This document shows positions 1 to 47,230 of a stretch of 64,000 nt of DNA, one piece after another (the first letter of the stretch is position 1; each line of letters starts with the position of its first letter). This DNA comes from Naegleria gruberi (taxonomy: Eukaryota), in assembly GCA_000004985.1 (NCBI GenBank), contig GG738877.1; one strand, given 5' to 3'. A program made the position numbers and the translations under genes. The notes under the pieces are model-generated. The model searched no databases. It saw only the letters and a list, made by a program, of their open reading frames with translations, and was not told the origin of the DNA.

Positions 1-3000
1 GGCATCCAGTGACAAGAAGCGTATGCTTTGTCCTGCCAAGACACTTGAATTTGGTAACTATTTGGGCTACTCTGGAACTGCTAAGAGAAGTAATCTTAAA
101 AAGACTGCTCTACAAAGCTTTGAAAGAGAAAACAGACCATTGCGTTTGTTCTTTATTCCTGAAATTGTTGAATATGTAGCCATGATAGATAGAGTTCTCT
201 GTAAAGATGGAAATTCTTTACTACTCGTAACCAAACAAGGCATTGGTAGTAGTGATATGGTTGCCCTCGTTTGTCACCTTCTCAAGTTTGAGCTATTCAT
301 TCCAAAGATGGTTGTTGGCTACTCTAGCAAGCATTTCAAGAATGATGTTAAAGCTGTTATTCAAAAAGCTGCACAAAACGAAAAAGTTTGTCTTATCCTT
401 GAAGACCACCACATGACTGACGTTTCACTTTTGGAATATGTTAATAGTCTTCTCAGTTCTGGTGAAATTCCAGGTCTCTTTACCAAGGAAGAATTAGAAA
501 TGATTCTCTCTTCTATCAAAGATGAAAGTTCAAGAGAAGGAAATCAAAGTATGAGTCCTAATGCTATCTTCATCAAACGTGTAGTTAACAACATGAGAAT
601 AGTTTTATTGATGGATCCTGATAATAGTAACTTTGATATGAAATGTAGATCAAATCCTGCCATCTTTACAAAATGTTCAATCATTTGGAAGGATAATTGG
701 TCCGCAGAAGGAATTCAACAAATTCCAAAGATGATTATAGATGAAAATGACTTGAAGACCCTATCTCTTAAACCAGATGAATTCATGCAATTGTTCGTTA
801 ATATTCACGATACTTGTACTGAAAGAAAAGCAACCCCTCTCCATTTTATTAACTTTATTGATACATTCAATAAGACTTTACAAAAGAAGAGATCTGTTAA
901 GCAAGAACAACAAGAGCACTTGAACAAGGGTTTATCAAAGTTGAAGGAAGCATCTAAGAGTGTTGATGAATTGTCTAAGAAAGCTGAAGTACAAAAAATA
1001 CAACTCAATGAAAAGCAAGAACAAAAGAAGATTGCCCTTACAGAAATTCAAAAGAGTATGCAAGAATCAGTCAAGGAACAAAATGATATTGAAAAGCTAA
1101 AGGAGCAAGTCAAGGTAGAAGATGTCAAGCTCAACGAAAAGAAGAGTTTCATCAATGGAAAACTTTCAAGTATTGAACCTCTTTTGGAGAGTGCCAAACA
1201 AGCTGTCGGTGCATTAACACCAAAAGAAATATCTGAAATTAAGAGTTTACAACAACCTCCAATTATTATCAGACAAATTTTGGAAGGTGTAGTTAGATTG
1301 ATGGGACAAAAGGATTGGAATTCTTGGAAGGGTATCCAAAACTTCTTGAATCGTATGGGTGTTAAGGATCAAATTATGAACTTTGATGCATCAACTGTAG
1401 ATAAAAAGGTACTTGATGATATCAAGAAATATCTTGCCGGTGAAGGTGCAGAATCATTCCAACCTGAAGTTGCTGCCAGAAGTAGCAAGTCAGCTTTACC
1501 TCTCGCAAAATGGGTTACTGCCAACGTTGAATATGCTGAAGTCCTCCAACAAGTTGGTCCACTTAAAAGAGAAATGGAAATTTTACTTAAATCTCAAGAA
1601 GTATTGAACAATCAATTGGCTCAATGCGAGAGTAAACTTAATACCCTCAATGAGAAGGTCAAATCTTTGCAAGATGAATACGAACAAAAGACACAAGAAG
1701 CTGAATCCCTCAAGTTTGGACTCCAACAAGCCGAAAAGACACTTTCATCAGCTAAGAGTTTGATTGGAAAACTTGGAGGTGAAAAAGAAAGATGGGAACA
1801 ACAACTTGATGCATTGGCAAAAGAAATGAAAGATATGCCATACCAAGCATTATTAGCTTCATCATTTATGACTTACCTTCCTGATGCCCCAGAAAATGTT
1901 AGAAAGGAATATATTGAAAAATGGAAGATTATTGCTAATATGAAGTCATTTGACTTCCGTTCATTCATGAGTACTGAAAGTGAAATGCTCCAATACAAAG
2001 GTGAAGGACTTCCTGGTGATGAACTTTCAACAGAAAATGCTATTGTTATTTTAGAAAGTATTAAGCATCCACTTATCATTGATCCATCCAGAAGAGCTGT
2101 TGAATGGTTAAAGACTCACTTGATGAATAAGAGCGTAGAATGTACAACTTCCCATGATACCAAGTTTAGTACAACTTTAGAATTGGCAGTGAGATTTGGT
2201 AAGACATTAATTGTTGAAGAAGTTGATCAAGTCGATCCAATCCTCTATCCACTTTTGAGAAATGAAATTATTGTACAAGGTACTAGAAAATCCGTAGTGG
2301 TAGGAGAAAAGACTGTTGATTACAGCGAAGATTTCAAGATTTATCTTGTAACAAGAAATCCAAATATTTCCCTTACACCTGATGCTTCTCCTCTTGTTAC
2401 TGTTGTCAACTTTACTGTAACAAAATCTGGTCTAGAAGGACAATTATTGAGTCAAACCTTACAACATGAAAACCCAGAAATCGAACAAAAGAAGAGTATG
2501 TTGTTGAAGAAGGAAGAAGAAAACAAGATTCAACTTAGTGATTTAGAAAAGCAACTCTTGAATGAATTAGCATCATCCAAAGGAAATCTACTTGAGAATG
2601 AATCTCTTATCACTAAATTGGCTGAAATTAAGAAGAAGAGTCAATCTATTGTTAGCAGTTTAGAAGAATCTAGTAAGACTATGAAGGAATTAGAAACAAA
2701 GAGAGATCAATATCGTCCATTTGCTGAAATGGGTAGCAACCTTTTCTTTATCATTTCTGATATGAAGAACATTAATAGAATGTACCAATTCAGTCTCTCT
2801 TCATTCATCAAGCTTTTCGATCAAGCTTTAACTTCAAGATTAGACAAGGCATCTGATGTTAATTTGAGAATTACCCTATTGAAACAAGAATTGAGTAAGA
2901 TTGCCTTTACCTACATTACTAGATCTTTATTCAAGGAGGATAGACTTTTATTTGGTATGCATATGGTTCGTGGTCTATTCCCATCAATGTTCAATCAACA

Positions 3001-23232: not shown

Positions 23233-23281
23233 ATATCCAATTAAGAACTAATCCAACAAATCACAAAACCTTCACAAAAAA

Positions 23282-25765
23282 ATGCCAGCACAAGAAAAGA
23301 AGAAAGTATCCGTCATCCAACAAGCACTTACCAGTGATCGGAAAATAAAGATTGATGATCAGGTAGGACAAAAAAGAATGGACATGTTGAAGCAACATTT
23401 GAATCCAGTGCTAACAACACCAACTCCACAACAGAAAAAAGAAGCAAAAGATACCAAACCACCAACTGTTGCTCCAACAAAATCTTCTGAAAAAGTTGCT
23501 GTCAAACCATCCGAAACATTTCCTTTCAATGAATTTTCAAAATTTATTTCACCATTCACCCCAAAGGAGGAAAAATCATACTTAAGAGTGATTCAAGCAA
23601 TGAAAGACAGACCCGACCTCTTTGCTGCACCTGATTTGGACATGCCAAGAATTGAACAAATGGATTATAATTATGAGAGAGTAGGTTTAAATATAATATA
23701 TAATTTAAATAGTTTATCATGAAAATGCAAATTCAAATGGGTGAATATTTTAGTTGAAATATCTAGTATTGGAAAAGAGATGTTTTTCAATTGAGACATT
23801 GGAACACGATACTGCATCATTTTTTGCTGGAGTCTTTGCTGCTGCATATTTTGATCAAGCCTTATCAACCAAAATTATGCTCCAGGTAATTATCAATGTT
23901 AATTAAATTACTGACTCGGAATAGTTTAGTTTTTGGGGAGGTACTTTATTAAGTCTTGGTACTCAAAGACATAGAAAATATTTGGAAAAAATTGACAACT
24001 TAGAATTGATGGGAAGTTAGTATGTTTTATTTCGAGTGTTTGTAATTTTCTAATAATTTTAGTGCTATTACTGAGCTTGCACACGGATCTAATGTTAAAG
24101 GAATTCAAACAACAGCTACTTATTGTAAAGAAACTGATACATTTGAAATTAACACTCCAAATAGAGAATCATGCAAATTTTGGATTGGAAACTCTAGACA
24201 TTGTCATATGTGTTTAGTATTTGCTCAACTTTATGTTGGTAATGAAAATCATGGTGTTCATTGCCTTGTAGTTCCTGTTAGAAATCCAAGCACTAATGAA
24301 ATTTATGATGGTGTAACCATTGGTGATTGTACTGTTAAGGAGGGTTTGAATAATCTCGATAACGGATTCCTTATGTTTAACAAAGTTCATGTCCCAAGAG
24401 AAAACTTGTTAAACAAGTATGGTGATGTTACACCAGAAGGTTTATATGTTAGTGAAATCAAGTCAGCCAACCAAAGATTTGGATCAATGATGTCAACTTT
24501 AACAATGGGAAGAACAACCATTTGCGTCAACTCTGCCCAAGTCCTTTCCAAAGTTTTATGTAGGTATTAGGTATTACTTTTTTATTAACCCATTTTCAGT
24601 TTTAACTTTAGGATTTTCATTTGAAAGAAGACAATTCGGTATCCCTAATCAATCAGAATATCCAGTAATTAATTTTCAATCACAAAAAACTGTATTATAT
24701 CCAATGTTGGCCAAATTCTTTGCATTTAGATTTGCCTCCAATCAAGTATTCCACTTGTACGTGAATCGTACTCCTGAAACAACTCAAAAGCTTCACATAA
24801 TGAGCGCTGGTTATAAGGCATATCTGACTGATTCCACTCAAACATGTATTGTCAAGTTGAGAGAAAAGTGTGGTGGCTTGGGCTATTCAAATCTTAATAG
24901 AATTGGACAAGCTATTTGTAATCACGATATTTACAAGACTTTTGAAGGTGATAATACTGTTCTATTGGTAAGTTTTCAATATATTCTTTTATTTTAACAT
25001 TATAAATAGCAAGAAGTATCCAAATATCTCCTTGGTAATTATAACAAGGTAATGGGCGAGAAATACTCAAGCGTTTTCTCCTCAGTTGGTTATTACTTAT
25101 TAGACTCCTTGAATGATAATGTAAAATCAAGACAATTGAAAAACTCAACCAATTTGCTTGATCCAAACTTTTACTTGTCATTATTCGACGTCAAACTTGA
25201 AAAGCAAGTTCAATCTGCTGCTCTCAGATTTAGAAATATTCTAAATGAACTCAATCTTTCCACTAAAGATAATATTCCAAAGGAGCAAAAGAAGGCACTC
25301 AATCATTTCAATGCCTGGAATATGGTACAAAATCAATTGTTGGATGCAGCAACAGCCTACATTGAAAATGAACTTTTAGCATTATTCCACAGCAAAGTTG
25401 AGGAATGCAAGAATCCAACAATCAAGAAGGTTTTAACCAAACAACTCAATTTATTCGTTGTTGATTTATTGGAAAAGAATATGACATACTTTTTAACTCA
25501 TCAATTAATTACACCAGAAGTTGGAAAACAATTGGTCAAGGAGAAATCCAAGCTTATTGACTCAATTGATTATGTTGAACTTTTGAATATTGTTAAGGCA
25601 GTTATCGATCAAGACTCAATCCCTGTCCCAATTTGTAATAATGAAGGATTAGTCAGTGGTAAAGTATCATCTGATCCATCTCCAATCTACTCTTCCATGC
25701 TCAAGGCTGCTCTCTCCAATAAGCAATTATTTGGTAATGCTTCTGCTGAAAAACTTGGTCTTTAA
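23282..25765 (+). CDS. Acyl-CoA oxidase (peroxisomal ACOX family). Multi-exon gene with at least 6 exons and a roughly 100-aa K/P/T-rich N-terminal extension.
   Basis: Exons at about 24062-24570, 24612-24968 and 25011-25765 carry the conserved blocks TELAHGSNVKGIQTTATY, KFWIGN, HGVHCLVVPVR and FEGDNTVLL, plus the ACOX C-terminal helical domain. The first exon is 23282 to about 23688. One or two short exons between 23700 and 24060 are not fully resolved. Confidence 0.8.
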
Positions 25766-25817: not shown

Positions 25818-28800
25818 TTAATATAAAAACTCATAAGAAAGATAAAGCTTTCCTTTAACTTTTTCAATTTCCTTTGGCTTCTTTTGGATTAGCAGATTTG
25901 GTTTGAGTGGATATGAAACCTCTGTACCATCAACAATGTCCTTCATATTTACAGACACTAATCCCATATAATTATCTTTTGAAATAGATTCCTTATCGTA
26001 CATATGGAATGCCAAAACTCTTGTGTCAGCTTTAATATCTCCAATCAATTTTCTAATAGATTTGATTAATTAAATAACAAAAAATAACAAACATACATCA
26101 TGAAACTTTGATTCCACACAGGATTCAAACATTTCTTAATTGGATCTGTAATAAATAAACTTGTTTTCTTCTTATTGACTTCTTTCTTTCCATCATCAAA
26201 TTTGGCTACAACATATGGATCAGAACTATATTGTGATTAGTAATTTGATTATTTGAAATACTTACTGTTTGTCATTATTGTGAGCAGGTAGATCTACTGC
26301 CTTAATAATCTTGACCATTAAATGCTTTGGTGGTTCAGGAAGCAAACAATTAAAGTCTTGCATATTTACCTTGCATAATGCTTGTGAATTAATCATTCTC
26401 GTACCAACATCCTTCATAACAGACAATACTGACAAGACATCTCCAACCTTTGCCCATCCACATTTGGAAGGATCAATTACTACTCTAAACTTTTCACCTC
26501 CAACAATTTGATCAAAATATTTCAAAACAATTATTTCACCAGGTGGAGGAACTGCAGTCAACTCAAAATTAATAACAATACCAAGCATTTGTGTTTGAAT
26601 ATCATAATCCTTATAACTAACTTCAAATCTAGAATTTTCACCTGCATAAGTAAATCTCTTTTGACTTGTAATAATTTCAACACAAAGCGGATTACCATAT
26701 CTACAATTTTGTTCAGTCAATTCAATTGCACTATTGACTGTCAAAACCTGAAGCTTTGGTTTGTATTGAATCTTTGATGCTTCAACTGCCATAACAGAAG
26801 TGACAATATCCTTATAGATATCATCAACAAATGGTGTAGAAACTGTTTCTTTTGGTGCTAAAACTCTGGCAGCAGGTCTCAAACGAATATAATCAGATAA
26901 CATTTCCTTTCTGATCTTTTCAATCCAGTTGGTTTCTCTGTTAAAATCTGCTCTCAATGGCACTACTTTCCACAAATCTGATTTGATATCTACCTTCTCC
27001 AATTTAATCATGAGCATATCAGTTTCGAATGATGGTTTAATCACTGTTTTGTCCTTAATCTTTTTGAGAGCTTCCTGTTGATCATTCAAACTCAAATCTT
27101 GAACAGTGACAGCAAATAAATCTTGATTCTTCTCCTCATCGTAAACAATAAAACGATGAGTTTCATCAACAATGGAATTAATAAATCCTTGAGAAAGTGT
27201 TCTTGGTCTAGTTTCATCCTCAAAATCACAATCATAATATGGTTTTGGTTCACCTCTGATAGTTGTTTCAGGTAATCTCAATGAAATTTTGATGAACAAT
27301 GTCTTGAGAGATGGGAAATTAGCAACCTGATCCTTCAACGCAAGTTCAAAGGCAGTATTATACTTATTTTTTGCCTGTTTGGCAGTTTCATGGTATACAT
27401 GATAGCCATACTTATCAAAATAACATAAATCCATTGTAATGAATGGTTTCTTTGAGAGTTTACGTGTGAATCCTTCATCTTCATCATCGTCATCATTCTC
27501 CACAAGATATGGAGCCAATCTTTTACCTAATCTCAATTTAACATGCAATGGTTTTTGAGTAGAAAATTCAACTGTTGTACTCATATTAGCAGAGGCATTG
27601 GAAAGGAGTGGACAAGTATCAACAGTATCAATTAGAGGAGAGACAACTGGCATATGTCTGACAGCATACTTGTAAGCACCCAAGTGACCAGACTGATCAG
27701 TGTACTGATCCATGTTATAGAGCTCCCATCTATGAGGACCATTATTCACTCTTGGCAATCTCTTTAAAACACCCCAAATCAAACAGCATTCAGTACCTGG
27801 AGAAGCAAAAAGAGAAGAAACAAGTTCCTTCTTTTCATTGTAAACTTTCATAACACTATCTCTAACTCTGATGAAATTAGTTTCAGAATTACCTTGGAAA
27901 ACTGAAACGAATAAAATCTTATCAATTCCATCAGGAACATGATTCAAATCAACAGAGAATGTACAATCAGATTTTGAATGAGTCTTTCCAACAATGACTG
28001 GTTTTTCACATGCTGGATTGAAAATAGGTTCTCCAATATGATTCATTACATAATTACCCTTATCCAAACAAGCTGCTTTTGAACTAATACTAAACTTTTT
28101 ACCAACCAAAGTATGTGAAATTTCAAAGTAAAAGTATTTAACTCCACTATTATGATGAGTTCCTTCCAAAACAACTGAATTATTCTTCTTTAATTCAAAG
28201 TATTTGTATGGTGAATGAACTAAATCATCATTTTGAGTTGGGAAAACATCTAAATTCAATTAAAAATATCAATTAATGAATCATTTGAATAATTGGAGAA
28301 CATACTTTTAGGAATTTGATCATGAATCAATCCTGTTTTGTAACATTCCATAATTGAACTTGTTTGATTTCCCAAATTCAATCCCAAAGGAGTAAATTGA
28401 CAAGTTTGTGAAGTGCTATCCATCCACAACATACTTGATAAGTAAATAACACGATTATTCTTAAATTTTGTAAGAGTGTTATATGAAAATGTGAATTTGC
28501 AATCTGATTTGAATTCTGTCTTGACATTCTTAGGTACATTATCACCATAAACATATTTTCCCCATTCAACAATTAAATTTGATTGAGGGCTGATAGCTTT
28601 ACTCAAATCACCTTCAACAAAAAAGATAAAACACTTTGCTTTACCTCTATATGTCTTTAGTGGATCGGATAAAGTTGCTCCAATATCAAATTCTTCATCA
28701 TCCATTGCTTGTTGTTTAAAAACTTCCATTTCATGAGCCACATCTAATTTACTTGCATTGAATGCTTCAATATAATTCATTCCTTTCAATGATTGTTTAT

Positions 28801-29380
28801 GAAAGTCTTTGAGAAATAGTTTAAATGGAACATCAAGTAATTCTTTTGGATTTGTAAATAATTGAGAGAGTGTTGGTTTGATGAGAAAGGATTGACTATA
28901 TTCTCCATCATTTTCTGTATGATTAGATGATTTCAATGATATGGTTTTGTGATAATTTGATAATTGATAAAGAGGTCCACTATGATCATCAAATATAACT
29001 ATTCAATTTTGAGAGTTTAGAATAAATATTTAGTTAGTCACACCATTCAACAGTTTAGAATGTGGTTGATTTTGTTGATATTTCATACAATATATAGTAA
29101 TAATAATATTATTTAATCATGTTGATGATGAAATGTTGTTTTTTGTAGACAGGTGATGAAATATTTGAATGTTTGTTCGTTAAAATTTCAATTATTATGA
29201 TGCAAGCACATTAAACAACATACCATCTGTTACAAAACCCAATTCATTCAATTGGATACATCCAAATCTAACATGTTCATTCTTTGGTGTGTTATTCTTA
29301 CTGAAGGTAAATTGAATTTCCAAAGCATCATTAGGAGGGAGAGCAACTGATGATGAATTGCTATCACCGAGGTGAGACAT
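25818..29380 (-). CDS. About 1030-aa multi-exon protein with beta-rich N-terminal and central regions and a C-terminal C2 domain. Function unknown.
   Basis: Exon 1 is 29380 to about 29222 (ATG at 29380), followed by an intron of about 215 nt. Exon 2 is about 29003 to 28306. A 56-nt phase-1 intron at 28305-28250 joins track ORFs 28256-28936 and 26262-28259. The next exon is 28249-26266, followed by a 40-nt intron at 26265-26226. The C2 domain (SDPYVVAKFDDGKKEVNKKKTSLFITDPIKKCLNPVWNQSF...) is split by one further intron before the final exon 26048-25818. Confidence 0.6.
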
Positions 29381-32423: not shown

Positions 32424-33995
32424 TTAAGGACGAGAGCATCCATATCCAGATAGATTTTCTTCAATGTGCATTTGGAGTTTCATTCTTTCATTTCTTCTAA
32501 TAATTATAAAGAGCGCACATAACAATGGAATAAGAGTGGAACACAACACCCCACTCAAAACAGCAAATAAAATAGTTAAAGTATTACTGTTAACAAATGG
32601 CATGGCGTCAGCAAACTCCAAAGATGGAGTGAGTGTTATAATACAGGTATCATACTGGGGATTTTCTACAAGAATATAGCACCATATTGATCTAAGTTCA
32701 TCATTGTTATAGTAACCAGAAGACACAAACACTTTAGAATAATGTTGGTTACTTGGAATAGTATCTGTTGCAAGATAAATTGGCAATCCATCTGTTAGTA
32801 ATGTTGTGTCAGGAAAATTAACTTGTATCAATAGCCTGTATCCTCTTGGAATAAGTATTTTGAAAGCCTTTGATCCACCTTTAGATAAGTTAATCCTTTC
32901 AGCAGTGTTTCCTTCTAATAAGGCTGGAATCATTGAAGAGGAAATAGTAGGAATGTAGGCTGACTTGACTGCTATAAACATGTCATGATCGACATTGTAT
33001 TCTTGATTGAATAGACATGTCAAGGAGGTTGTTTCATCATTAAATCGTGATTCAAGTTGGTGAATCTTTCCTTCTATAAGGAACATGCATGTAAGTGACT
33101 CAAACGACATCTCAATTAAGTTGTTGCTTATATCGAAATCATATTTCGCTCTATTGAATCCAATATCAATTGTTGCTTCTGTCAAATTCAGAGGTTGGTT
33201 GAATAATGAAACTTGGAATCTTGCTAAAATGTAATAGCCCTCTGGTATGTCGCTATATGATACATAGTATCTACCAACAGATATAAAGGGAGATAAGGTT
33301 GGCGCAACGTAAGCAGCCTTTGGGAAGGTATATAATACAGATTTGATATTGTTGGTACACATAAAAGAAATGCTTCTTGGGTAGTGTATCGAAACAGATC
33401 TATCAAACTTAACGTTTTGTACGTCTTTAAATACAAATACTCCAAATATGAAGGAGTCATAAAGATCAATAGTGGTTGTGAAACGAGTTCCTTTCTGTGA
33501 AAAAGTCCCAGGATATTTACATGAATTATCTTGTGCATTATAGAGAGCTATCCAATACGAATACGGATCCAAGTTGAAGAAGGTGGGAACATGTGACTCC
33601 ACACCAATTTCCAAGCTTAAAGAATTCTGATTGAGATCGATCTGAGTCAAGTTTAATGAATAGAAAGCTATTTCACGGAAGGGTTTAGGGAGGATAGGAA
33701 GTGTACACTTTGATTTTAAGGAAATCTGATTCAGTGATATGTTTCCTTTCAGCATTGAATTGTCGGGAAGTGAAAAAAGGAGAGAAAACTTTAAACTATT
33801 AAAATCATATCTGACTGGCATCTCCCTACTTAAAGGATAAGATTTTTCCATATAGGTATCTTTAAATGTACAACTTGTTGCTTCTTGACCTGCAACAATA
33901 AGGCTTATTGAATAAATAACAAACTGTAGAAAGAGTAGTATGGAAAAACAACCTCCAGACTTCCCTTTAAGTGATGAAGAAGGAGTGAAGGCCAT
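32424..33995 (-). CDS. 523-aa type I membrane glycoprotein: signal peptide, about 440-aa N-glycosylated ectodomain, one C-terminal TM helix and a short basic tail. Lineage-specific, function unknown.
   Basis: Intronless ORF with ATG at 33995. Signal-like segment is ILLFLQFVIYSISLIVAG. There are many N-x-S/T sites. C-terminal TM is LTILFAVLSGVLCSTLIPLLCALFIII, followed by RRNERMK. Confidence 0.5.
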   Translation of the reverse strand: MAFTPSSSLKGKSGGCFSILLFLQFVIYSISLIVAGQEATSCTFKDTYMEKSYPLSREMPVRYDFNSLKFSLLFSLPDNSMLKGNISLNQISLKSKCTLPILPKPFREIAFYSLNLTQIDLNQNSLSLEIGVESHVPTFFNLDPYSYWIALYNAQDNSCKYPGTFSQKGTRFTTTIDLYDSFIFGVFVFKDVQNVKFDRSVSIHYPRSISFMCTNNIKSVLYTFPKAAYVAPTLSPFISVGRYYVSYSDIPEGYYILARFQVSLFNQPLNLTEATIDIGFNRAKYDFDISNNLIEMSFESLTCMFLIEGKIHQLESRFNDETTSLTCLFNQEYNVDHDMFIAVKSAYIPTISSSMIPALLEGNTAERINLSKGGSKAFKILIPRGYRLLIQVNFPDTTLLTDGLPIYLATDTIPSNQHYSKVFVSSGYYNNDELRSIWCYILVENPQYDTCIITLTPSLEFADAMPFVNSNTLTILFAVLSGVLCSTLIPLLCALFIIIRRNERMKLQMHIEENLSGYGCSRP

Positions 33996-34310: not shown

Positions 34311-35810
34311 ATGCAACCTGAGAAAAAGCGTCTGTGCTTTGAGGTGTCCCCGATGTGGACAATTATTTTTCTGTATCTTGTTTTAGCTGGTGTGTTTGGT
34401 GTTCTTGCGATCGGAGGCATATTTGGACCACCTGCTGTTGAAATTGTTGATGATAAACCATTGAATCTTGAACCATCAGTTTTTAAAGAAGTTTTAGATG
34501 GTGATAAACCACTTATTGGATTTTTTGATGATCTCTCTGTTTTTAATGATGAAGTGATTTTTACCATGACTTTCTATCCAAATGAAAGTTTAATTAATTC
34601 GATCGGATTTGAAGACATTTTGGAATTGGAAGTTACATTAACCGGAACAGATTCACAAGGAAAAAAACATGATCTTACACCAACAACAACAAAGATTCAC
34701 AAGAGAGAATTAATTTGTCGTCAAGGCCAACAAACTTGTCAACCTGTTACTCTCTTCCAATTACCTTATGTTGCATATCCAAAATATGAAACAAGAATTT
34801 CCATCAAAAATCAAAAGAAGCAAGCTGAATTGGATTTCTTCGTTCCAAAATTATATTTCAGTTATATGAGTATGAATGATAGTTTTGTCAAATTTGAAAT
34901 TGGTATGTATATTAATGATCAAAACACATCAACTAACTTGAATAGCTTTTAGATATGTCTTCTTATTCTTTAACATTCTTATATATGCTCTCTTTGTTGG
35001 ATTTACTAGATTCAAGCAACCATTCTCTGTATGGCACACTGAACAAAAGTGGATTGCTCTCATTTTGGGATTCTTGGTTCTCTATAATAGTAAGTAGTAT
35101 TTGATTTCAATTCTAAAACTGTTTTAGACCCTGTTTATGTCCTGCAATATATTTCTGATATCTGGCTATTCAGTTTGATTAATATTGTCTTTAGAGTTAC
35201 ATATATTTCACTTATTTTGTTCAGCTTTTTGGTATTTGCTCATTCCATTTATACAAAGGAAGAGAATCGTAGTGTATTTACATTCTATTTCCCAAAGGGT
35301 ATTTTAATTACCTCATTGTGGATTCTTACAACTGTTTCATTCATTATGGTCAGTCTTAACAAGCAATTTGATACAGTTTACTCATTTGAAGAATTGACAT
35401 ACCACAATTATATTACCGCAGCTATAATATTCTTATTAGCTCTATATATTTTACAACTTTTATATTATATTATTAGAGGTGTTGGAATGATGGGTGACCT
35501 TCCAACAAAGTATTCTTCCAAATTTAAGGTTATTTATGGTGTCACACTTTTTGTGCTCTTTATTGCTATTGCAACATCAGTTATTTCATATTCTCTTGGA
35601 AAGCTTACATCCTTCTTATTCTTGGCTAGTCATGCCTTGTTGAATTTGTGGCCATTTGCATTGGCTATCTTCTTCCTTCCTTCAAATGAAAAACACATTG
35701 GAGAAGATAGAGATGAAATCAGAATCCTCCAAGGCGCTGATGAAGATGATGATGAAGAACTCGAATTACGAAATGAGGATGAGCAAAGTGATGATCAAAA
35801 CGAAGAATGA
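34311..35810 (+). CDS. Multi-pass membrane protein of the TMEM181/Wntless-like family. It has an N-terminal TM, a luminal beta-rich domain, about 7 TM helices and an acidic C-terminal tail. Three exons.
   Basis: Exon 1 is 34311-34906. A 46-nt intron at 34907-34952 uses a GTATAT donor. Exon 2 is 34953-35089, followed by a 38-nt intron at 35090-35127. Exon 3 is 35128-35810. The splice restores the FSVWHTEQKWIALILGFLVLYN TM segment. Family assignment rests on topology only. Confidence 0.5.
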
Positions 35811-35876: not shown

Positions 35877-37298
35877 TTATTCTTGATTCAATAACTTTTC
35901 ATAATCTACACCCCTATCTCTATAAAATTCAAAAACAATTGGATTCATAAGACTGAAATACAATGGTGGAATGAAAGAGATTAAAATCATGGTTGAATAG
36001 CCGAATGGTAGTTTTGGAGATTTCTCATAAACTCTCAATTTGTAATATTCTCTGGTTGCATAGAAATGATGATCTGCATGGAAAACAATATTGAAATAGG
36101 CATAACTACTCATTCTAAACAAGGCATCAAAGCTATGAGTTTCATTCACTGGTTCATACTCACCATCATCCCTCAATTTTCTCTTCAATCCATAATGTTC
36201 AATATAATTCACACATTCAATAAGAATAATGGCAATCAATGCAGTAAGCAAGTAGGAACTCAAACCCAAAGTACCAAACTTGTAAAATACAAACGAGGCA
36301 AACAATACCAATGAAACAGTACTCCAGAACATTTCTGAGAAGAGTAAACTTGGAAGTGTTGTGTTAAATCTTCTTCTCCTTCTTTCTCTATGCTCAGTAT
36401 CAATGTGCCAAGCATTCATATATCCACCAATACAAGATCTCACAGCAAAATTGTAAAGATTTTCTCCAAATCTTGCAGTGGCAGCATCTTGAGGAGTTGC
36501 TGCTTTCTTATGATGAGAATAAACATGTTCCAGAGGGAAATGTAAATAACCATGGAAAATTAAAATAATCCTAGCACATAAATTCTCAATGAAGGTTCTC
36601 TTATGAAGTAAATCATGAGAAACTGCTCCTGATTGACCCAAAGCAACACCCAATGAAATTGAATGCATGAGAAATTGTTCAGCAGTCAACAAGTGAACTC
36701 TACTCAAAGAATAGAAAAACAAACAAGTTAATGAAATCGTATAAATGATTGGAACCATTCTATACAGGGTACTATAGTCTCTTGTTTGTGAGTCAATTTC
36801 CTTCTTATCATGTTCTTGATTCATATAGACGTACTCCTTTCCATTGTAAAAATAGTCAATCATTGGAATGATTACAAAACCAAATAATGGACCAGCCAGA
36901 AATGAAGTACAAATTACAGTTTCATCAGAAGGAAAATACTCTGAAATTATAACAGAAATGTTGTGATTATTAATAGTAGGAATCATTATAGTCTCTGGAA
37001 TTGTTGTAATTGTTTTATGAATGAAAGACAACGGCTGAGTAATGATATGTTTACGAAGAGGATGATCAACACTTTGAGATAAAGCCCACCACGAGAATGC
37101 ATGTAAACAAACAAGAATATGAATGTTAATCAAGTAGAGAATTGGGTTATTCCACAAGGGTGGATTTTGACTTGTAACATTTGAGTTGTTATTTACAATA
37201 TCACCACCACCAACTTGTGATAATTCATCATGATTATTTTGATGAATTTCATGAGTCAATGCACCATTCTCATTCTTCTGGGTTGTTGATATCAACAT
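35877..37298 (-). CDS. Integral-membrane di-iron alkane 1-monooxygenase (AlkB) family hydroxylase homologue. Intronless.
   Basis: All four AlkB histidine boxes are present in order: HDLLHKR, EHVYSHHKK, NYIEHYGL (identical to the AlkB motif C consensus) and HADHH. Several TM helices lie upstream of the boxes. The N-terminal 60 aa are N/Q-rich and eukaryote-like. Confidence 0.75.
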   Translation of the reverse strand: MLISTTQKNENGALTHEIHQNNHDELSQVGGGDIVNNNSNVTSQNPPLWNNPILYLINIHILVCLHAFSWWALSQSVDHPLRKHIITQPLSFIHKTITTIPETIMIPTINNHNISVIISEYFPSDETVICTSFLAGPLFGFVIIPMIDYFYNGKEYVYMNQEHDKKEIDSQTRDYSTLYRMVPIIYTISLTCLFFYSLSRVHLLTAEQFLMHSISLGVALGQSGAVSHDLLHKRTFIENLCARIILIFHGYLHFPLEHVYSHHKKAATPQDAATARFGENLYNFAVRSCIGGYMNAWHIDTEHRERRRRRFNTTLPSLLFSEMFWSTVSLVLFASFVFYKFGTLGLSSYLLTALIAIILIECVNYIEHYGLKRKLRDDGEYEPVNETHSFDALFRMSSYAYFNIVFHADHHFYATREYYKLRVYEKSPKLPFGYSTMILISFIPPLYFSLMNPIVFEFYRDRGVDYEKLLNQE

Positions 37299-38041
37299 AT
37301 TTACAAGATCCTCTTCTTATTCCTTACTTCCTCCAGAGTGGTGGTTTGAGTGTTTGAGTGCTTGTTGTATTTTGTAAAATAACCGAAAAAAATTGAGCTT
37401 GGCAGTGAGATTGAGTGTTGATTTGATTTTTTAGTTTGATTTATCTCTAGATGGATATTTGCCAAACTTTAATCTCGATTGAGATTGCATGGCGGAAGAG
37501 ATGTCCTCTCTCTAATTGGTTCGATAACCGAGTGAATGTTGAGCATAAATATAAATAGAGTGAATACTCGTCAATTGTGCATAATGATAATAATCGATGT
37601 TATCTTTAATTTGATTGGATTGAAATGTCTTCAACACGTTTTGCATTCGAAAGGAGTTTGATTCTTTTTTACAAATTGAAAGAGACTTTAAATCAAAATA
37701 GGAAATATTAAAAGAACATTGAACATTGGGGTGCTGTTTTTATTTTTAAAGAGAGAACATATTGAATAAGGCACATCATTGTCTGTAAGGCGTTTAACAT
37801 GATTTTGAAATTCACATTCCCTCGAAGAAGATGATGATTAGTATTTGGCTCCTCTTTAGTATTGGGTGTGAACATTTGTTATTGACCTTCGAAATTAATA
37901 AGGGTCCAAAAAATTGAGTTTCCTCCTTTTTTGTGAACAAATTATTAAAGATTGCAGAGTTAGTGCAATTTCAAAGTTCACAAATGGTGCTATTTTAAAA
38001 TTGCATTCAAACTGGAAATCAATAAAAAACAAAAGAAAAAA

Positions 38042-39451
38042 ATGAAAGACTTTGAAAAAGCAGAGCTTCCCTTTGATATTGTTCCAACTTCTGATCACTT
38101 TGATTATTTAGAAGCCTTGCAAAATGAAGAATATTATAACAAGGGAATTATTTTACAAATTATCTTTGAAAAGGAGAAGGAAGAATTTCCATCAAAAGTA
38201 TTCTCCGATTTGATGAATAGATTGGTGTTGAGAACAGATAGTTCGGTTCTCACTATTTTGTGTCCATTGTTTTCTATTGAGATGCCGAAGGGTAATTCAA
38301 AGTTTACAACTGTTCGGGATTTGTTACTTGCTATCAAATATTCAATTGATGATATGCCATCTAGTATTCAAAGTCAACTCTTGCCAAAGATTGGTGTATT
38401 TTCTGAAATTGTTAACAATGTAGATTATGTTCCTGATTGGTTCAAATTGATTATTGAAGATCCACTTGGAAATTCAAGAATTCAATGTAATAGAATAGAA
38501 AACATTTCAACATTGAAGGATTGTTACGATAGTGATCCAAATGTTCATGCTGATTTCTTTACTCGTACAGAAGCTGATTGTCTTGAATTTGATTTGATTT
38601 TGGAAATTGAAGAAAGACCAAACACACTTTATGGAGATAACGCTTTAGAAAAGATTATTGAACTCATTCAAAATTCATCTAAAATTTTGGGATTGACAGG
38701 AGCAGGTATTTCTGTTGAAAGTGGAATTTCTGCCTTTAGAAACAGTGGCAATAGTCAATTGCAAAATATTTGGGAAAAGTGGAATCAAGATGAAATGACC
38801 TACCAGAATATTCTTTCTAAAAAAAAGATAAGAGACGATTACTTTGAGATGCATGCGTTCTTGAAGGAACAAATTTCCAAGGCAGAACCAAATGGCTCTC
38901 ATCACTTGTTCGCTCAACTCAAGGAGAAAGGAAAGTTGTTGAAAGTTATCACTCAAAATATTGATGGCATGCATCAAAAAGCTGGACTTTCAGATGACAA
39001 AGTTATTGAAATTCATGGCAGCTCCAGAGGAGTTGTTTGTACCAAATGTCGTACATTGGTCGAAGATCCAGAGAAGATTTACAGTCAAGTCAAGGATTGT
39101 GTCTTAGAAGGAAAATCTTTGCCAGATGAACTGGTAACATGCAAATGTGGAGGTGTTTTGAAACCAAATACAATCTCATTCGGTGAAGAATTACAAGATA
39201 GCAAATTAATTGAAGCAAGGCAACAATGTAGAGAATGTGATTTGATGATTATTATGGGAACAAGATTGTTGGTTTCACCAGTTAATCAATTACCAAAGTT
39301 GGTGGCTGCAAGAAATGTCCCAGTTGTCATTATTAACTTGGAGAGCACACCATTTGATAGAAATAGTGTTGCTGTCATGAACGGCAAGAGTGGTGAAACT
39401 TGTAATTATATTCTTCATCGTTTAACCTCTATCAACAATCAAGAACGATAG
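38042..39451 (+). CDS. NAD-dependent protein deacetylase, SIR2/sirtuin family, with an approximately 200-aa N-terminal extension. Intronless.
   Basis: Rossmann motif LTGAGISVESGISAFR and QNIDGMH are present. The Zn ribbon is CTKC...CKCGGVLKP, followed by FGE and MGTRLLVSPV. ATG at 38042. Confidence 0.85.
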   Translation: MKDFEKAELPFDIVPTSDHFDYLEALQNEEYYNKGIILQIIFEKEKEEFPSKVFSDLMNRLVLRTDSSVLTILCPLFSIEMPKGNSKFTTVRDLLLAIKYSIDDMPSSIQSQLLPKIGVFSEIVNNVDYVPDWFKLIIEDPLGNSRIQCNRIENISTLKDCYDSDPNVHADFFTRTEADCLEFDLILEIEERPNTLYGDNALEKIIELIQNSSKILGLTGAGISVESGISAFRNSGNSQLQNIWEKWNQDEMTYQNILSKKKIRDDYFEMHAFLKEQISKAEPNGSHHLFAQLKEKGKLLKVITQNIDGMHQKAGLSDDKVIEIHGSSRGVVCTKCRTLVEDPEKIYSQVKDCVLEGKSLPDELVTCKCGGVLKPNTISFGEELQDSKLIEARQQCRECDLMIIMGTRLLVSPVNQLPKLVAARNVPVVIINLESTPFDRNSVAVMNGKSGETCNYILHRLTSINNQER

Positions 39452-43201: not shown

Positions 43202-44197
43202 CTAAAAGACAAAATCATTAAACATGAAAATAAATGTTTCTATAGATGCCTTAATCTCGGCAACGTTTCTCTTATCTTTTGGGTTGTCATGGTACCCGTT
43301 AATTCCTCCTACATCCAGATATTTCAAAGACCTAGAAATAGTCTTATTGTTGACTAATGCTCTACATACTTCCAAGTTCGAAGCATGGATTTTTAACTTT
43401 TCCAGTTGAAGAGTGCATTTGATATTCAAGACTTTATCCCTATCTTCAATTCTATAACAAGAGAATTCCAATTCTTTCAAATTTACCCAGACAGAATTAG
43501 TAAGTATATTTGAAAAATCCTGTTCTTGTATCCAAATTTTAAGGACAAGCTTTCTCAAATTAGAAAAAAGCTGGTTCCTGCACATTAGTTGAATGTCTTC
43601 TGTTTTTACATGTTCAAAATCCAATGTTAATTCACTTAAATTACATAAGTTGAATGTCCCTAAACTAGCAATTCCAAAATTATTAAACTCATTATTAGAC
43701 AAAGTAAGGGTTTTGAGTTTTTTCAAAAATGGGCTGTTAAAAATATCTGACAGACCTGCATTGCCCAACTTGTGTGAAGAAATCGCCAAAATTTCCAAAT
43801 TGGAAAATGTTTCACAATTAGCAATCAGCCCAATCTCATCCCCAAGACTCATATCTTCGTAACTATTTTCCTCATCCATAAATCCTTCAAACCTACTCAA
43901 ATTCGTCAAATGCAATTCTTTCAAATTTTTCAAATGAGGATTTTGAATAAATTTTCTAAAGCCTTCTAACTTTATATTTTCCATTACAGCCAACTTGGAA
44001 ACATGCTCCATCAATCTGTTCTCGGTAATTTTACAGAATTTAGGAAAATCTCTGAACAATGATAATTCAATCTGGTGAAAATGTTTACTAGCTTCTAGCC
44101 AAGATTTAGAAATAATTCGTAAACTGAAGGCCTCGTTTCCTCCGATCAATTCCATAACTATTAGGCAAATGTCAGGAATAAAAATCTCTGTTTGCAT
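43202..44197 (-). CDS. Leucine-rich-repeat (RNI-like) protein, 331 aa, possibly an F-box/LRR adaptor.
   Basis: Intronless ORF with ATG at 44197. Repeated LxxLxLxxN/C LRR units are present (LKELHLTNLS, LKTLTLSNNEF, LSELTLDF, LRKLVLKI). Confidence 0.55.
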   Translation of the reverse strand: MQTEIFIPDICLIVMELIGGNEAFSLRIISKSWLEASKHFHQIELSLFRDFPKFCKITENRLMEHVSKLAVMENIKLEGFRKFIQNPHLKNLKELHLTNLSRFEGFMDEENSYEDMSLGDEIGLIANCETFSNLEILAISSHKLGNAGLSDIFNSPFLKKLKTLTLSNNEFNNFGIASLGTFNLCNLSELTLDFEHVKTEDIQLMCRNQLFSNLRKLVLKIWIQEQDFSNILTNSVWVNLKELEFSCYRIEDRDKVLNIKCTLQLEKLKIHASNLEVCRALVNNKTISRSLKYLDVGGINGYHDNPKDKRNVAEIKASIETFIFMFNDFVF

Positions 44198-44237
44198 TTT
44201 TTTTGTAAAATTAAAAAAACTCTAATGAATTTCCAAG

Positions 44238-45686
44238 TTATTCCAATAATGAGTACTTTCTTTCAACTTCTGAGAGTTGTTGTCGTAATTGATCTATTTT
44301 GAGTTTAAGATTCTGACAAATATAATCATTCATGAACAATTCGTTGTCATCATCGTTAATGTCTATTGTCACTAGAAAATCCTCTTGCAAGTTAGAAGAG
44401 TTTTCTTTGTAGGAAGATATTGAACAGCTTGATTTTTCAAGTCCAAGTTTCGTTTCGATTTCTTCTTCATCAATGAATTGAATTTGCTTGCTTTCGAATG
44501 GTAATTCATCCAGTGATTCTAATGACTGAGTAACTGGCATTTCCGACAAACCTGCAATGGAGGATGTTAAAGGTTTGTTTTCCATACCCTGTTTTGTTAG
44601 CATGTTATCTCTAATTAACATTTGTTCAACAAGGTTTCTTTCTTTCATAAGCTCCTCAACTTTGTTAAATACATCATTTTTTTCATCCCCTATTATTTCA
44701 TAACTATTTGGATTGAGATATGATTCGTGTAGACCTATTGATTGCAAACGTGACAGAACACTCTGTCTAAACATTTCATCAAGATGATCATCGCCTGAAT
44801 CTATCAAAATATTGCTTTTTTCAGTAGAAACTGAGTTTGAGATTATTGAATCCAAATTCTTAACTTCAGTACTTTCTAGAGCCATTCTACTAATTTCTTT
44901 AATATCAAAATCAATTGCATCTATGGAATCGATTGATTCTTTAATAGAATTATCACCCTGTTTGAAATTAGATGCCTTTTTCTTCCTAGATGGTAATATT
45001 TCATCCAAAATAATATTTGTATCCAATTTACCTAAATTGTCAAGATCGTCCAGACCCTTCCGTTCAGTCCTTTTTGTGGGTGGTGCTGTTCTGAACCTCT
45101 TAATATATTCTGCAATTCTTGCTGGTCTGGTTGAACCCTGTTTTTCCACATACCTCGGACTTGACTTTAACGATTCATGTGAGCTATTACCACTCTTTCC
45201 TCCAATCGATTGGTTACTTGAAATTGAATCTCTTAAATCTCTTTCTCTTTGTTTTTTGAGAGGCATCGAATCTCTTGACAAAGTTAATTCATGATTTGAT
45301 TTTGCTGAAGAAAAGCTATTCCTACTACTAGAAGTTGAACCAAGCTCATTTAAAGACTGTGCTTGATCATTTACAGACATTACTTCCATATCCTCATCTT
45401 CATCCAACATGAAAGAAAGAGATTCCTTCTCATCATTCTCTTCATCTTCCTCTCCAATATAATGAAAATTTAATTGTTCATCCTTAGATTGCTTCTGAAC
45501 AGGAAGCTTGCTTGAATCCTCCCTAGATGATAAAGAATTACTTGAACCCCTCATTGCCTTACTAGAATTATTAAACTCGAAATTCCTTTGTTCAAACTCC
45601 ACCGATGATGAAGGGAACTTTTGAATTCTCATCTCTTGCTCCGAAATTACCCTTGAAGAAGTTGTTGGTCTTCCATTTCTAAACAT
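44238..45686 (-). CDS. 482-aa S/E/D/N-rich low-complexity protein with a short C-terminal coiled coil. Function unknown.
   Basis: Intronless ORF with ATG at 45686. Compositionally biased, no recognisable domain. Confidence 0.4.
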   Translation of the reverse strand: MFRNGRPTTSSRVISEQEMRIQKFPSSSVEFEQRNFEFNNSSKAMRGSSNSLSSREDSSKLPVQKQSKDEQLNFHYIGEEDEENDEKESLSFMLDEDEDMEVMSVNDQAQSLNELGSTSSSRNSFSSAKSNHELTLSRDSMPLKKQRERDLRDSISSNQSIGGKSGNSSHESLKSSPRYVEKQGSTRPARIAEYIKRFRTAPPTKRTERKGLDDLDNLGKLDTNIILDEILPSRKKKASNFKQGDNSIKESIDSIDAIDFDIKEISRMALESTEVKNLDSIISNSVSTEKSNILIDSGDDHLDEMFRQSVLSRLQSIGLHESYLNPNSYEIIGDEKNDVFNKVEELMKERNLVEQMLIRDNMLTKQGMENKPLTSSIAGLSEMPVTQSLESLDELPFESKQIQFIDEEEIETKLGLEKSSCSISSYKENSSNLQEDFLVTIDINDDDNELFMNDYICQNLKLKIDQLRQQLSEVERKYSLLE

Positions 45687-45835
45687 TTTTTAATTCTTTT
45701 CAAAATATTGGCGCCAAAACAGAATGTATGTGATGGAACAAGTTATTTTGTTTTTCCATCCAGCATTCGAACTCTATCAACACAAGCTTTTATGCTTCAA
45801 CCAAAAATTATTAAAAAAAATTGTCCCATTCAGTG

Positions 45836-47230
45836 ATGGCCCGTTATTCAACACGTTCTGCTAACGTTGTTGCAAAAAACAAGAAGAAAAACTACAATTC
45901 TGTAGAAATAAGTGATGAGAGTAGCGATTGCTCTTCGGAGTCGTCACTTGATGATAGTATTATTGTATCCGATGAAGAGGAAGAAGCTACAAATGTAAGA
46001 AATGATGAAGAGGAAGAAGAAGAATATGAGAGTGATGAAGAGGAAGTTGACAATGTGGAAACTAATGATGAGGAGGGTGATTCTATGATAAAACCAATTT
46101 TAATTGATGATGATGAAGAAGAAGAAATTGTCCAACTCTCTCCAGCACATCAGTTAGACCTTGATGATGATGATGTTGTGGTTGTGACTGGTTTAAATAC
46201 ACCAAAGACACCTTCCCAAGATGATAATACTATCACACAACATGAAGAAGAAGAATCCAATTCTAATAGAATGCACGATGATATCACGCATGAAATGGGA
46301 GGATTAGATAGACCAGAGCTTGAAGAAGTACTGGCAGAAGCTAATCAATTACCATCTGATCATGAAGATGATCAATTCACAACACTTCCACCAAACATTA
46401 TAATTCCTCAACAAACATTTAACAACTCAAAAACCTCATCATCAAATCAATACCCCTCCAATTCCTCACCATCTTCCTCAAATTCTAGTAAGGAAATCTT
46501 CTCTTCAACCTCATCAACTCCTAATGTAATCAATAATTCCACCACTCCTACTACTAACAGTTTCAACTCATCAGAGAAGAAAACCAACAATGATTGCACA
46601 TTGGATTTACCTCCAAACTCTAAAAAAACATCAATGACACCTCCAAGAGAAATTCTCATGCCAGATGAAACTCAACACTCACAAACTCCACACTCAAATA
46701 TTATTCCACAATCTCCTCATCCATCACCATATACTCCTTCCTGTACAATATTCAATTCACCAATAACTTCACCATCATCATCTCAATATTCCCTTAATAA
46801 TTCCCAATATTCCCCTCAATCCCTTCCAACTCATCTCAATAGTAATAGTCAAACTGAATCATTAATTCAATCCCGAAAGAGTTTACCCTCAATTAGTTTC
46901 GGCCTCTCAGAAATATTCAAGAGTAGAACTATGACTCCAATTCAATATAGAAGAGATAGCCAACAATTAGATTATCAAGATGATGACGAAAAGAAAGAGG
47001 AAGATGATGAATTATGGCCAGAAATTAATAATTCATTTATACACAAGGCCAAAACATCAAGTAGTGAAAGAAGAGTTGTTCGTCATCCTTCCTTGGAAAA
47101 ACAATTTGAAAAGGAACAAAAACAACAAAGAGAACTAAAGAGGAATCTGAAAAAGAGAGTAGAAACCGATGCATGGGATCCAAATATTCATTCGGATTCA
47201 AAAAGAAAAAAGAAAAAGACTAAAAAATAA
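45836..47230 (+). CDS. About 465-aa acidic protein with polyE/D runs, an S/T/P/N-rich middle and a basic KRKKKKTKK C-terminus (nuclear-type low-complexity protein).
   Basis: ORF with first ATG at 45836 (track start 45821 is TTG). No conserved domain recognised. Confidence 0.4.
   Translation: MARYSTRSANVVAKNKKKNYNSVEISDESSDCSSESSLDDSIIVSDEEEEATNVRNDEEEEEEYESDEEEVDNVETNDEEGDSMIKPILIDDDEEEEIVQLSPAHQLDLDDDDVVVVTGLNTPKTPSQDDNTITQHEEEESNSNRMHDDITHEMGGLDRPELEEVLAEANQLPSDHEDDQFTTLPPNIIIPQQTFNNSKTSSSNQYPSNSSPSSSNSSKEIFSSTSSTPNVINNSTTPTTNSFNSSEKKTNNDCTLDLPPNSKKTSMTPPREILMPDETQHSQTPHSNIIPQSPHPSPYTPSCTIFNSPITSPSSSQYSLNNSQYSPQSLPTHLNSNSQTESLIQSRKSLPSISFGLSEIFKSRTMTPIQYRRDSQQLDYQDDDEKKEEDDELWPEINNSFIHKAKTSSSERRVVRHPSLEKQFEKEQKQQRELKRNLKKRVETDAWDPNIHSDSKRKKKKTKK

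Follow-up and report, generated by a model that had tools for sequence, protein, structure and literature searches.

Does an amoeba carry a genuine alkane monooxygenase of the AlkB type and, if it does, how did the gene arrive, what might its product oxidise and what supplies the electrons? The question is raised by a gene in a 64,000-nucleotide stretch of Naegleria gruberi contig GG738877.1 (assembly GCA_000004985.1), called the window below. Alkane oxidation in eukaryotes is thought to be carried out by cytochromes P450, and AlkB is regarded as an enzyme of bacteria. The gene lies on the minus strand at 35877..37298, where a preliminary description of the window had placed it. The open reading frame (ORF) starts with ATG and is uninterrupted, and its product of 473 amino acids (aa) is 100% identical to the NCBI/UniRef entry "predicted protein [Naegleria gruberi]". 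The best overall explanation, with a probability of about 0.6, is that an AlkB gene was acquired from bacteria and that its product is a predicted hydroxylase which would draw electrons from a source other than rubredoxin.

A large survey detected alkB genes in only four bacterial phyla and not in archaea, and never mentions eukaryotes (PMC4021335). The literature searched contains no study of where a eukaryotic AlkB comes from, what partners it or what it oxidises; on eukaryotic AlkB or Naegleria rubredoxin it has only passing mentions in two expression studies (PMC7285305, PMC11150922). In UniProt, "fatty acid desaturase domain-containing" is the name given to both the N. fowleri and the N. 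lovaniensis protein. The label "alkane 1-monooxygenase" is also attached to the orthologues in databases. The N. gruberi protein is a eukaryotic addition to a well-known enzyme family, already annotated automatically.

Family assignment and orthologues

The sole Pfam assignment of the protein is FA_desaturase (PF00487; 7.6e-25, 88.6 bits against a cut-off of 29.7), which is a broad superfamily. An NCBIfam scan of the protein gave nothing at E <= 0.01. In a phmmer search of all PDB sequences the only matches were the AlkB entries 8sbb (2.2e-44) and 8f6t (1.6e-43), both over residues 135-459, with no desaturase structure at E <= 0.01. An AlphaFold model was built from an alignment of 62 sequences (A2). 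It has a predicted local distance difference test score (pLDDT) of 78 and a predicted template-modelling score of 0.77, and contains six long predicted helices. A Foldseek comparison of this model with the PDB retrieved the same two entries (8f6t: E 2e-15, target template-modelling score 0.71; 8sbb: E 4e-14, 0.79). The next match had an E of 0.19, and no desaturase fold was found at E <= 1e-3. Sequence and fold matches in the PDB are AlkB only, which upholds the earlier proposal that the protein belongs to this family and not to the eukaryotic desaturases.

The four motifs quoted in that proposal (HDLLHKR, EHVYSHH, NYIEHYGL and HADHH) are all present and in the order claimed. To our knowledge, the NYxEHYG motif and the AlkB topology of six transmembrane (TM) helices are specific to the AlkB family. 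The motifs had been presented as an eight-histidine signature, which is right in substance; the ligand count, however, should be nine His and one Glu, as in the structure of FtAlkBG (Glu271; PMC10113152). All ten of these iron ligands are kept in the N. gruberi protein: H228, H232, H258, H262, H263, E367, H368, H407, H410 and H411. The first five are among the ten invariant columns of alignment A2, and the last five are each at least 90% conserved there.

Among the 120 homologues listed, of 180 detected, most are unnamed; the named ones outside Heterolobosea are all bacterial "alkane 1-monooxygenase" proteins with 30-38% identity. The close homologues outside Heterolobosea have the length of bacterial AlkB. 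Judged by its sequence and its modelled fold, the N. gruberi protein is a true homologue of the AlkB-family alkane monooxygenases and not a eukaryotic desaturase.

Orthologues are found in N. lovaniensis (P0002, 61% identity), N. fowleri (P0270, FDP41_008978; P0003 is its first exon), Willaertia magna (P0121, ABK040_009445) and an uncultured environmental lineage present in two metagenomes (P0122 and P0269). Between N. lovaniensis and N. fowleri the nonsynonymous divergence (dN) is 0.092 and the synonymous divergence (dS) 1.32, giving an omega of ~0.07 with dS near saturation. All heterolobosean orthologues share an LPxWN(H/N)P motif leading into the first transmembrane helix (TM1). A loop of ~55 residues that joins TM1 to TM2 and contains a conserved N-I-S sequon occurs only in Naegleria and is missing from W. 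magna and from bacteria. The N-terminus is rich in Asn and Gln, as previously noted: by direct count they make up 28% of the first 50 residues. This extension varies in sequence among the orthologues and is missing from bacterial AlkB, and residues 1-45 have a pLDDT <50 and are modelled as disordered.

A further fragment was detected on a Logan contig of 1441 bp (P0127). It comprises 132 aa, is 90% identical to N. gruberi residues 41-139 and has a different N-terminus. Its probable source is a different member of the N. gruberi species complex, sampled in a public run.

Predicted reaction, substrate and electron donor

The position of the chain-length gate was located by transferring the HMMER alignment manually to the residue numbers used in PMC10113152, with the deposited chain offset by +3. 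Gly140 aligns with Ile54 of FtAlkBG, which corresponds to Trp55 of Pseudomonas oleovorans AlkB (PoAlkB). Bulky residues at this position limit chain length and small ones extend the range (PMC10113152). It is Gly in all heterolobosean sequences, and Ala or Gly in the Bacteroidota relatives. Since the gate residue is Gly, long-chain substrates (above C13) would be expected. The N. gruberi protein may perform the hydrocarbon or lipid omega-hydroxylation suggested in the earlier proposal; the pointers to terminal hydroxylation of n-alkanes are indirect, namely this Gly and the pine-leaf induction of an N. fowleri gene annotated as alkane 1-monooxygenase.

In the mechanism proposed here, the protein would reside in an internal membrane, most probably the endoplasmic reticulum (ER), with six transmembrane helices and with two irons held on the cytosolic face by the nine His and one Glu. 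Using O2 and two electrons, it would add a hydroxyl group to the terminal methyl of a hydrophobic alkyl substrate entering laterally from the bilayer. Candidate substrates are long n-alkanes or alkenes from prey and the environment, and other lipophilic hydrocarbons including plant terpenes. The alcohol product could be converted to a fatty acid and passed to beta-oxidation, on which Naegleria relies. N. gruberi favours lipids as fuel (PMC6205838), and an alkane-to-fatty-acid route would fit its lipid metabolism.

Expression of genes with this annotation has been recorded in two relatives. In N. fowleri RNA-seq data, "alkane 1-monooxygenase NF0077100" ranks in the top 20 for induction by pine-leaf extract (log2 fold change 6.35; PMC11150922). 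The W. magna transcriptome and proteome include an entry annotated as alkane 1-monooxygenase (K00496) among the expressed genes of xenobiotic metabolism (PMC7285305).

The N. gruberi protein itself contains no rubredoxin domain. In known systems AlkB is partnered by rubredoxin (AlkG) and rubredoxin reductase (AlkT), which are either fused or separately encoded. Rubredoxins were searched for in six-frame ORFs, both by phmmer with the Clostridium pasteurianum rubredoxin and with a CxxCG...CxxCG pattern. Neither search detected a rubredoxin-like ORF, whether in the 64-kb window, at the orthologous loci or up to 8 kb from the 77 bacterial alkB genes most similar to it; the sole match in these loci is an unrelated Fe-S protein. 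There is also no HPGG motif of cytochrome b5 near the eukaryotic AlkB genes, and Pfam scans of 30 further window ORFs revealed no redox partner.

A different kind of partner gene is seen in the bacterial relatives. Seven Bacteroidota loci (L004, L006, L022, L049, L059, L067, L082) have a reductase with FAD_binding_6, NAD_binding_1 and a C-terminal 2Fe-2S domain (Fer2) near alkB. This enzyme, with the ferredoxin-NADP reductase (FNR) fold fused to Fer2, lies 3 to 192 nt from alkB in six of the seven (for example, L004 6738-7856, minus strand). Together with the lack of a rubredoxin-like ORF at all 77 bacterial loci, the arrangement suggests that a rubredoxin-independent AlkB subgroup may exist. 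In vitro, ferredoxin and its reductase can replace rubredoxin and rubredoxin reductase (PMC4021335).

The docking surface of the protein is only partly conserved. Six arginines of FtAlkBG (143, 148, 169, 215, 284 and 287) contact AlkG (PMC10113152). Manual mapping indicates that two of the six are kept, namely R234 (= Arg143) and R306 (= Arg215, in the RERRRRR run), and that four are replaced, by N239, Y260, E380 and P383. The HRERRRRRF patch is strongly basic and is Lys/Arg-rich in all orthologues. The electron carrier is probably still acidic, but different from the classical AlkG rubredoxin. More loosely, the likelier donor is an acidic carrier that receives its electrons from an FNR-fold flavoprotein, be it ferredoxin or cytochrome b5 with its reductase; in the ER, cytochrome b5 and an FNR-fold reductase would be the obvious candidates. 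The wider claim, that in heterolobosean amoebae, N. fowleri among them, a bacterial AlkB is driven by a eukaryotic electron chain (cytochrome b5/b5 reductase or ferredoxin) and not by rubredoxin, is tentative and on balance doubtful.

Several observations weigh against the proposed acquisition of a bacterial AlkB that still works as an alkyl hydroxylase. The bacterial relatives share 60 columns with a conservation of at least 90%, and in at least one heterolobosean 21 of these are altered. Positions beside the ligands that are invariant in bacteria have changed (G261S, W390F/Y, N391D, L401Y, R406F/Y). Compared with 75 bacterial AlkBs, every heterolobosean has lost the Gly of EHxxGHH, the Trp-Asn of HSWN and the Arg of RHxDHH. 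The branch of the eukaryotic clade is long. The tree described below was made by neighbour-joining with a simple distance correction, from sequences pre-selected for likeness to the query. Finally, NF0077100 is only a putative equivalent of the orthologue FDP41_008978.

The ligand-adjacent replacements could mean that the reaction or the substrate has changed. The strongest alternative builds on this: the AlkB scaffold may have been turned to the modification of an endogenous membrane lipid, not of exogenous hydrocarbons, by omega- or in-chain hydroxylation or desaturation of a fatty acyl, ether-lipid or sterol side chain. The clade-wide changes beside the metal ligands and the long branch would be accommodated by such a shift, as would the luminal loop inserted in Naegleria with its conserved sequon. 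The desaturase/hydroxylase superfamily is known to switch both catalytic outcome and substrate (PMC9485055), and purifying selection with conservation in all lineages, including a mammalian pathogen, is also in keeping with a lipid enzyme. However, all ligands and the AlkB-typical NYxEHYG motif are kept, the gate residue is of the long-chain alkane type, and the annotated N. fowleri gene is induced by a hydrocarbon-rich plant extract, as in a response to exogenous compounds (PMC11150922). This alternative is considered unlikely, and it is kept open mainly because of the unexplained clade-wide replacements. Hydroxylation of long-chain alkyl substrates by a bacterially derived AlkB is still the preferred explanation.

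Origin of the gene

All genomic matches outside Heterolobosea (n = 593, confirmed by tblastn) are bacterial, as are all named protein matches. The nearest relatives are Bacteroidota (Saprospiraceae, Chitinophagales, Cyclobacteriaceae, Flavobacteriaceae) with 33-40% identity. Proteobacteria are close behind (Legionella rubrilucens 35%, Acinetobacter 35%, Alcanivorax 32%). An unrooted tree was computed from 5 eukaryotic and 75 labelled bacterial sequences over 347 columns, with 200 bootstraps. The eukaryotic clade was monophyletic in 200/200 bootstraps and sat on its long branch among the bacterial AlkBs.

The sister group of this clade was Bacteroidota only in 40/200 bootstraps, an Alpha/Myxo/unclassified proteobacterial group in 37/200 and mixed in 107/200. 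Distances to Bacteroidota are slightly smaller. Because Bacteroidota are sister in only 40/200 bootstraps, a donor relationship with them is not established, and the affinity suggested by the sequences is weak. The most parsimonious reading is a single bacterium-to-eukaryote transfer before the split of Naegleria and Willaertia, from a donor that cannot be named. An amoeba-associated donor, Legionella, was considered because L. rubrilucens is among the top matches with 35% identity. It was rejected: L. rubrilucens groups with other Gammaproteobacteria and not with the eukaryotic clade.

The preliminary description had treated the absence of introns as a mark of the gene. This is true of the N. 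gruberi copy but is not distinctive: the orthologues contain introns, and long ORFs elsewhere in the window, for the sirtuin, for DNA polymerase delta and for part of a dynein, are uninterrupted as well. In N. lovaniensis and N. fowleri a phase-0 GTAAGT..AG intron (48 and 72 nt, respectively) lies directly before NY(V/I)EHYGL. At the identical codon junction (E361/C362) the intron of the environmental lineage is GTATGT..AG and 34 nt long. W. magna has a different intron of 45 nt near the 3' end. In total, GT..AG introns occur in four of the five lineages, the N. gruberi copy being the one without. Because the orthologues carry introns, the intronless state is a trait of the N. gruberi copy and not of the gene family, and it is no evidence of transfer.

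The host-like codon usage noted earlier is confirmed. Relative synonymous codon usage correlates with that of 11 other long window ORFs at r = 0.95, and G+C at third codon positions is 0.27; for bacterial alkB genes the correlation with the host ranges from -0.13 to 0.71. The G+C content across the window is even (29-36%). All window neighbours that can be identified with Pfam are typical eukaryotic genes: dynein, RIO2, proteasome subunit, acyl-CoA oxidase (ACOX), sestrin and DNA polymerase delta. In N. lovaniensis the AlkB gene is also head-to-head with a ZPR1-SIR2 sirtuin gene, across a 606-bp spacer. In W. magna it lies between a proteasome-subunit gene and a PBP_like_2 gene, which in the N. 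gruberi window flank it at 15.8 kb and 49 kb. This synteny supports a single ancestral location of the AlkB gene. The gene is nuclear, single-copy, intact and under strong purifying selection.

The marks of an integrated horizontal gene transfer are present: eukaryotic flanks, host codon usage, synteny between species and introns in the orthologues. The proposal of an anciently acquired, domesticated transfer is supported by the orthologues, synteny, gained introns, host codon usage and the dN/dS of 0.07. A bacterial alkB gene would have entered the common ancestor of Naegleria and Willaertia and been inherited vertically since, acquiring host codon usage and, in the sister lineages, spliceosomal introns.

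An older presence of AlkB, in an early eukaryote or by way of the mitochondrial ancestor, with loss everywhere except in Heterolobosea, would agree with the unsettled position of the donor (the proteobacterial sister group appears in 37/200 bootstraps) and with the large divergence from every bacterial AlkB (30-40% identity). The distribution of the gene argues otherwise. In an exhaustive HMMER scan of 1.84 billion cluster representatives only four clusters stood above the bacterial plateau, namely N. fowleri, W. magna, the environmental lineage and an N. gruberi-like fragment. The heterolobosean-type clusters score 430, 322, 282 and 200 bits, and the first bacterial-length sequence scores 229 bits. 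Among the matches listed, the EukProt source tag appears on the N. gruberi protein alone. Such an origin would need many independent losses and is regarded as very improbable.

Bacterial contamination, chimerism of the contig or the decay of a recently transferred gene has a negligible probability as an explanation. In its favour are the lack of an intron in the N. gruberi copy and a family whose other members are bacterial (PMC4021335), but the eukaryotic genes on both flanks in one continuous window, the synteny in two other genome assemblies, the orthologue introns, the host-like codon usage, the dN/dS and the intact ORF together exclude contamination, chimerism and pseudogenisation, and transcripts or proteins annotated as alkane 1-monooxygenase, putatively from the orthologues, are reported in N. 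fowleri and W. magna.

Gene neighbourhood and known systems

The features of the AlkB gene and of its divergent neighbour are collected in Table 1. The sirtuin gene, on the plus strand from 38042, is indeed head-to-head with the AlkB gene, as first described; the spacer measures 743 bp rather than 740. Its N. lovaniensis counterpart (L001 7976-9394, minus strand) is likewise a fusion of jr-ZPR1 and SIR2, with 63% identity by tblastn.

Table 1. Coordinates of the AlkB gene, its motifs and the adjoining sirtuin gene in the N. gruberi window.
Feature	Position	Strand	Basis or remark
AlkB-family monooxygenase coding sequence, single exon, complete, 473 aa	35877..37298	-	stop codon 35877-35879
Asn/Gln-rich disordered N-terminal extension, ~residues 1-47	37158..37298	-	pLDDT, alignment, orthologues
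TM1, residues 52-74	37077..37145	-	helix in AlphaFold model
Inserted TM1-TM2 loop, residues 75-130	36909..37076	-	alignment; W. magna comparison; short helices, low-to-medium pLDDT
Gly140 codon, chain-length gate position	36879..36881	-	manual mapping from HMMER alignment to 8f6t and 8sbb
His box 1 HDLLHKR, residues 228-234; ligands H228, H232	36597..36617	-	
His box 2 EHVYSHH, residues 257-263; ligands H258, H262, H263	36510..36530	-	
Basic patch HRERRRRRF, residues 303-311, cytoplasmic face	36366..36392	-	manual mapping; orthologues
Codons E361 and C362, orthologue intron site (intron absent in N. gruberi)	36213..36218	-	
HYG motif NYIEHYGL, residues 364-371; metal ligands Glu367, His368	36186..36209	-	
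His box 3 HADHH, residues 407-411; ligands H407, H410, H411	36066..36080	-	
Divergent spacer between AlkB gene and sirtuin gene, 743 bp	37299..38041	.	
Sirtuin with N-terminal ZPR1 jelly-roll domain	38042..39451	+	Pfam SIR2 3e-39, jr-ZPR1 1.2e-8

A multi-exon gene for acyl-CoA oxidase, an enzyme of peroxisomal beta-oxidation, lies at 23264-25762 on the plus strand, ~10 kb from the N. gruberi AlkB gene. In N. lovaniensis the acyl-CoA oxidase gene (L001 5328-7903, minus strand) is directly past the sirtuin gene, on the side opposite alkB. The neighbourhood of acyl-CoA oxidase, alkB and sirtuin genes is reshuffled between the Naegleria species yet held together, which may be no more than residual synteny; the grouping is kept in N. 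lovaniensis and not in W. magna. The sirtuin gene serves as a synteny anchor. Functional coupling of alkB to the sirtuin or to acyl-CoA oxidase was considered and is unproven.

Next to the AlkB gene, the plus-strand ORFs 34311-34952 and 35175-35810 match a TMEM181 GOLD domain and a Wntless-like transmembrane domain. They resemble a pair of exons from a single gene with a ~220-bp intron, and the AlkB stop codon is 66 bp from their end. Four long ORFs of the window (26262-28936, 32424-33995 and 43202-45686 on the minus strand; 45821-47230 on the plus strand) encode 226-665 aa and have no Pfam domain at E <= 1e-5. They may be lineage-specific Naegleria genes. On an environmental, heterolobosean-like contig (L084), the gene divergent from the AlkB homologue (777-2295, minus strand) encodes a Rieske + PaO (pheophorbide-a-oxygenase-type) oxygenase, which is likewise a non-haem iron enzyme.

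An AlkB that is conserved, under selection and expressed in a eukaryotic lineage broadens the bacterial-only picture of the family. The result is moderately surprising to a specialist because the AlkB is vertically inherited in a eukaryote that has no evident rubredoxin for it. If the tentative claim about the eukaryotic electron chain is true, no AlkB before this one would have been shown to work in a eukaryote or to have a remodelled surface for partner docking, and long-chain alkanes or terpenes would be oxidised independently of P450 to feed a lipid-based energy metabolism. It would amount to a natural experiment in which a membrane di-iron enzyme was re-plumbed to a new electron donor. 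Naegleria has a metabolism oriented to lipids and hydrocarbons, which AlkB may explain in part. A rubredoxin-independent AlkB of the long-chain type would be useful in biocatalysis. We know of no human counterpart of the enzyme; because of this, AlkB in N. fowleri is conceivable as a marker or drug target, which does not imply that it is essential.

Among known systems, the closest comparison is with the bacterial AlkBs of P. oleovorans/putida GPo1 and Fontimonas thermophila (FtAlkB, FtAlkBG; 8sbb, 8f6t). The predicted six-helix membrane fold, the di-iron site of nine His and one Glu, the order of the four signature motifs and the positive cytoplasmic patch at the place where the electron carrier docks are shared. 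Identity to the Fontimonas structures is ~27-28% in the structural alignment, with a sequence E of about 1e-44. Unlike bacterial AlkB, the N. gruberi protein has a eukaryotic host, an extra disordered N-terminus and, as in the rest of Naegleria, the ~55-residue TM1-TM2 loop. Its gene has rubredoxin neither fused nor neighbouring, second-shell residues are changed (G261S, W390F, N391D, R406F), and the gate position that is Trp55 in PoAlkB is Gly.

The Bacteroidota AlkBs (cluster V of Nie et al. 2014) have the highest similarity to the eukaryotic clade (33-40% identity). They also share the small gate residue (Ala/Gly) and the lack of a nearby rubredoxin gene. They differ in their length of ~345-365 aa without an N-terminal extension, and some of their loci have an adjacent FNR-2Fe2S reductase or TetR regulator, unlike the N. 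gruberi locus.

Two further groups of enzymes offer comparisons. Stearoyl-CoA, sterol and sphingolipid desaturases belong to the same FA_desaturase superfamily, have a His-box di-iron site and typically use cytochrome b5 as donor. CYP52 of yeasts and CYP4 of animals are P450 omega-hydroxylases of alkanes and fatty acids, located in the ER, where terminal alkyl hydroxylation feeds beta-oxidation. The physiological role expected of the N. gruberi AlkB would be the same. The families are, however, unrelated: AlkB has a histidine-ligated di-iron site, whereas the P450s have haem-thiolate and use cytochrome P450 reductase.

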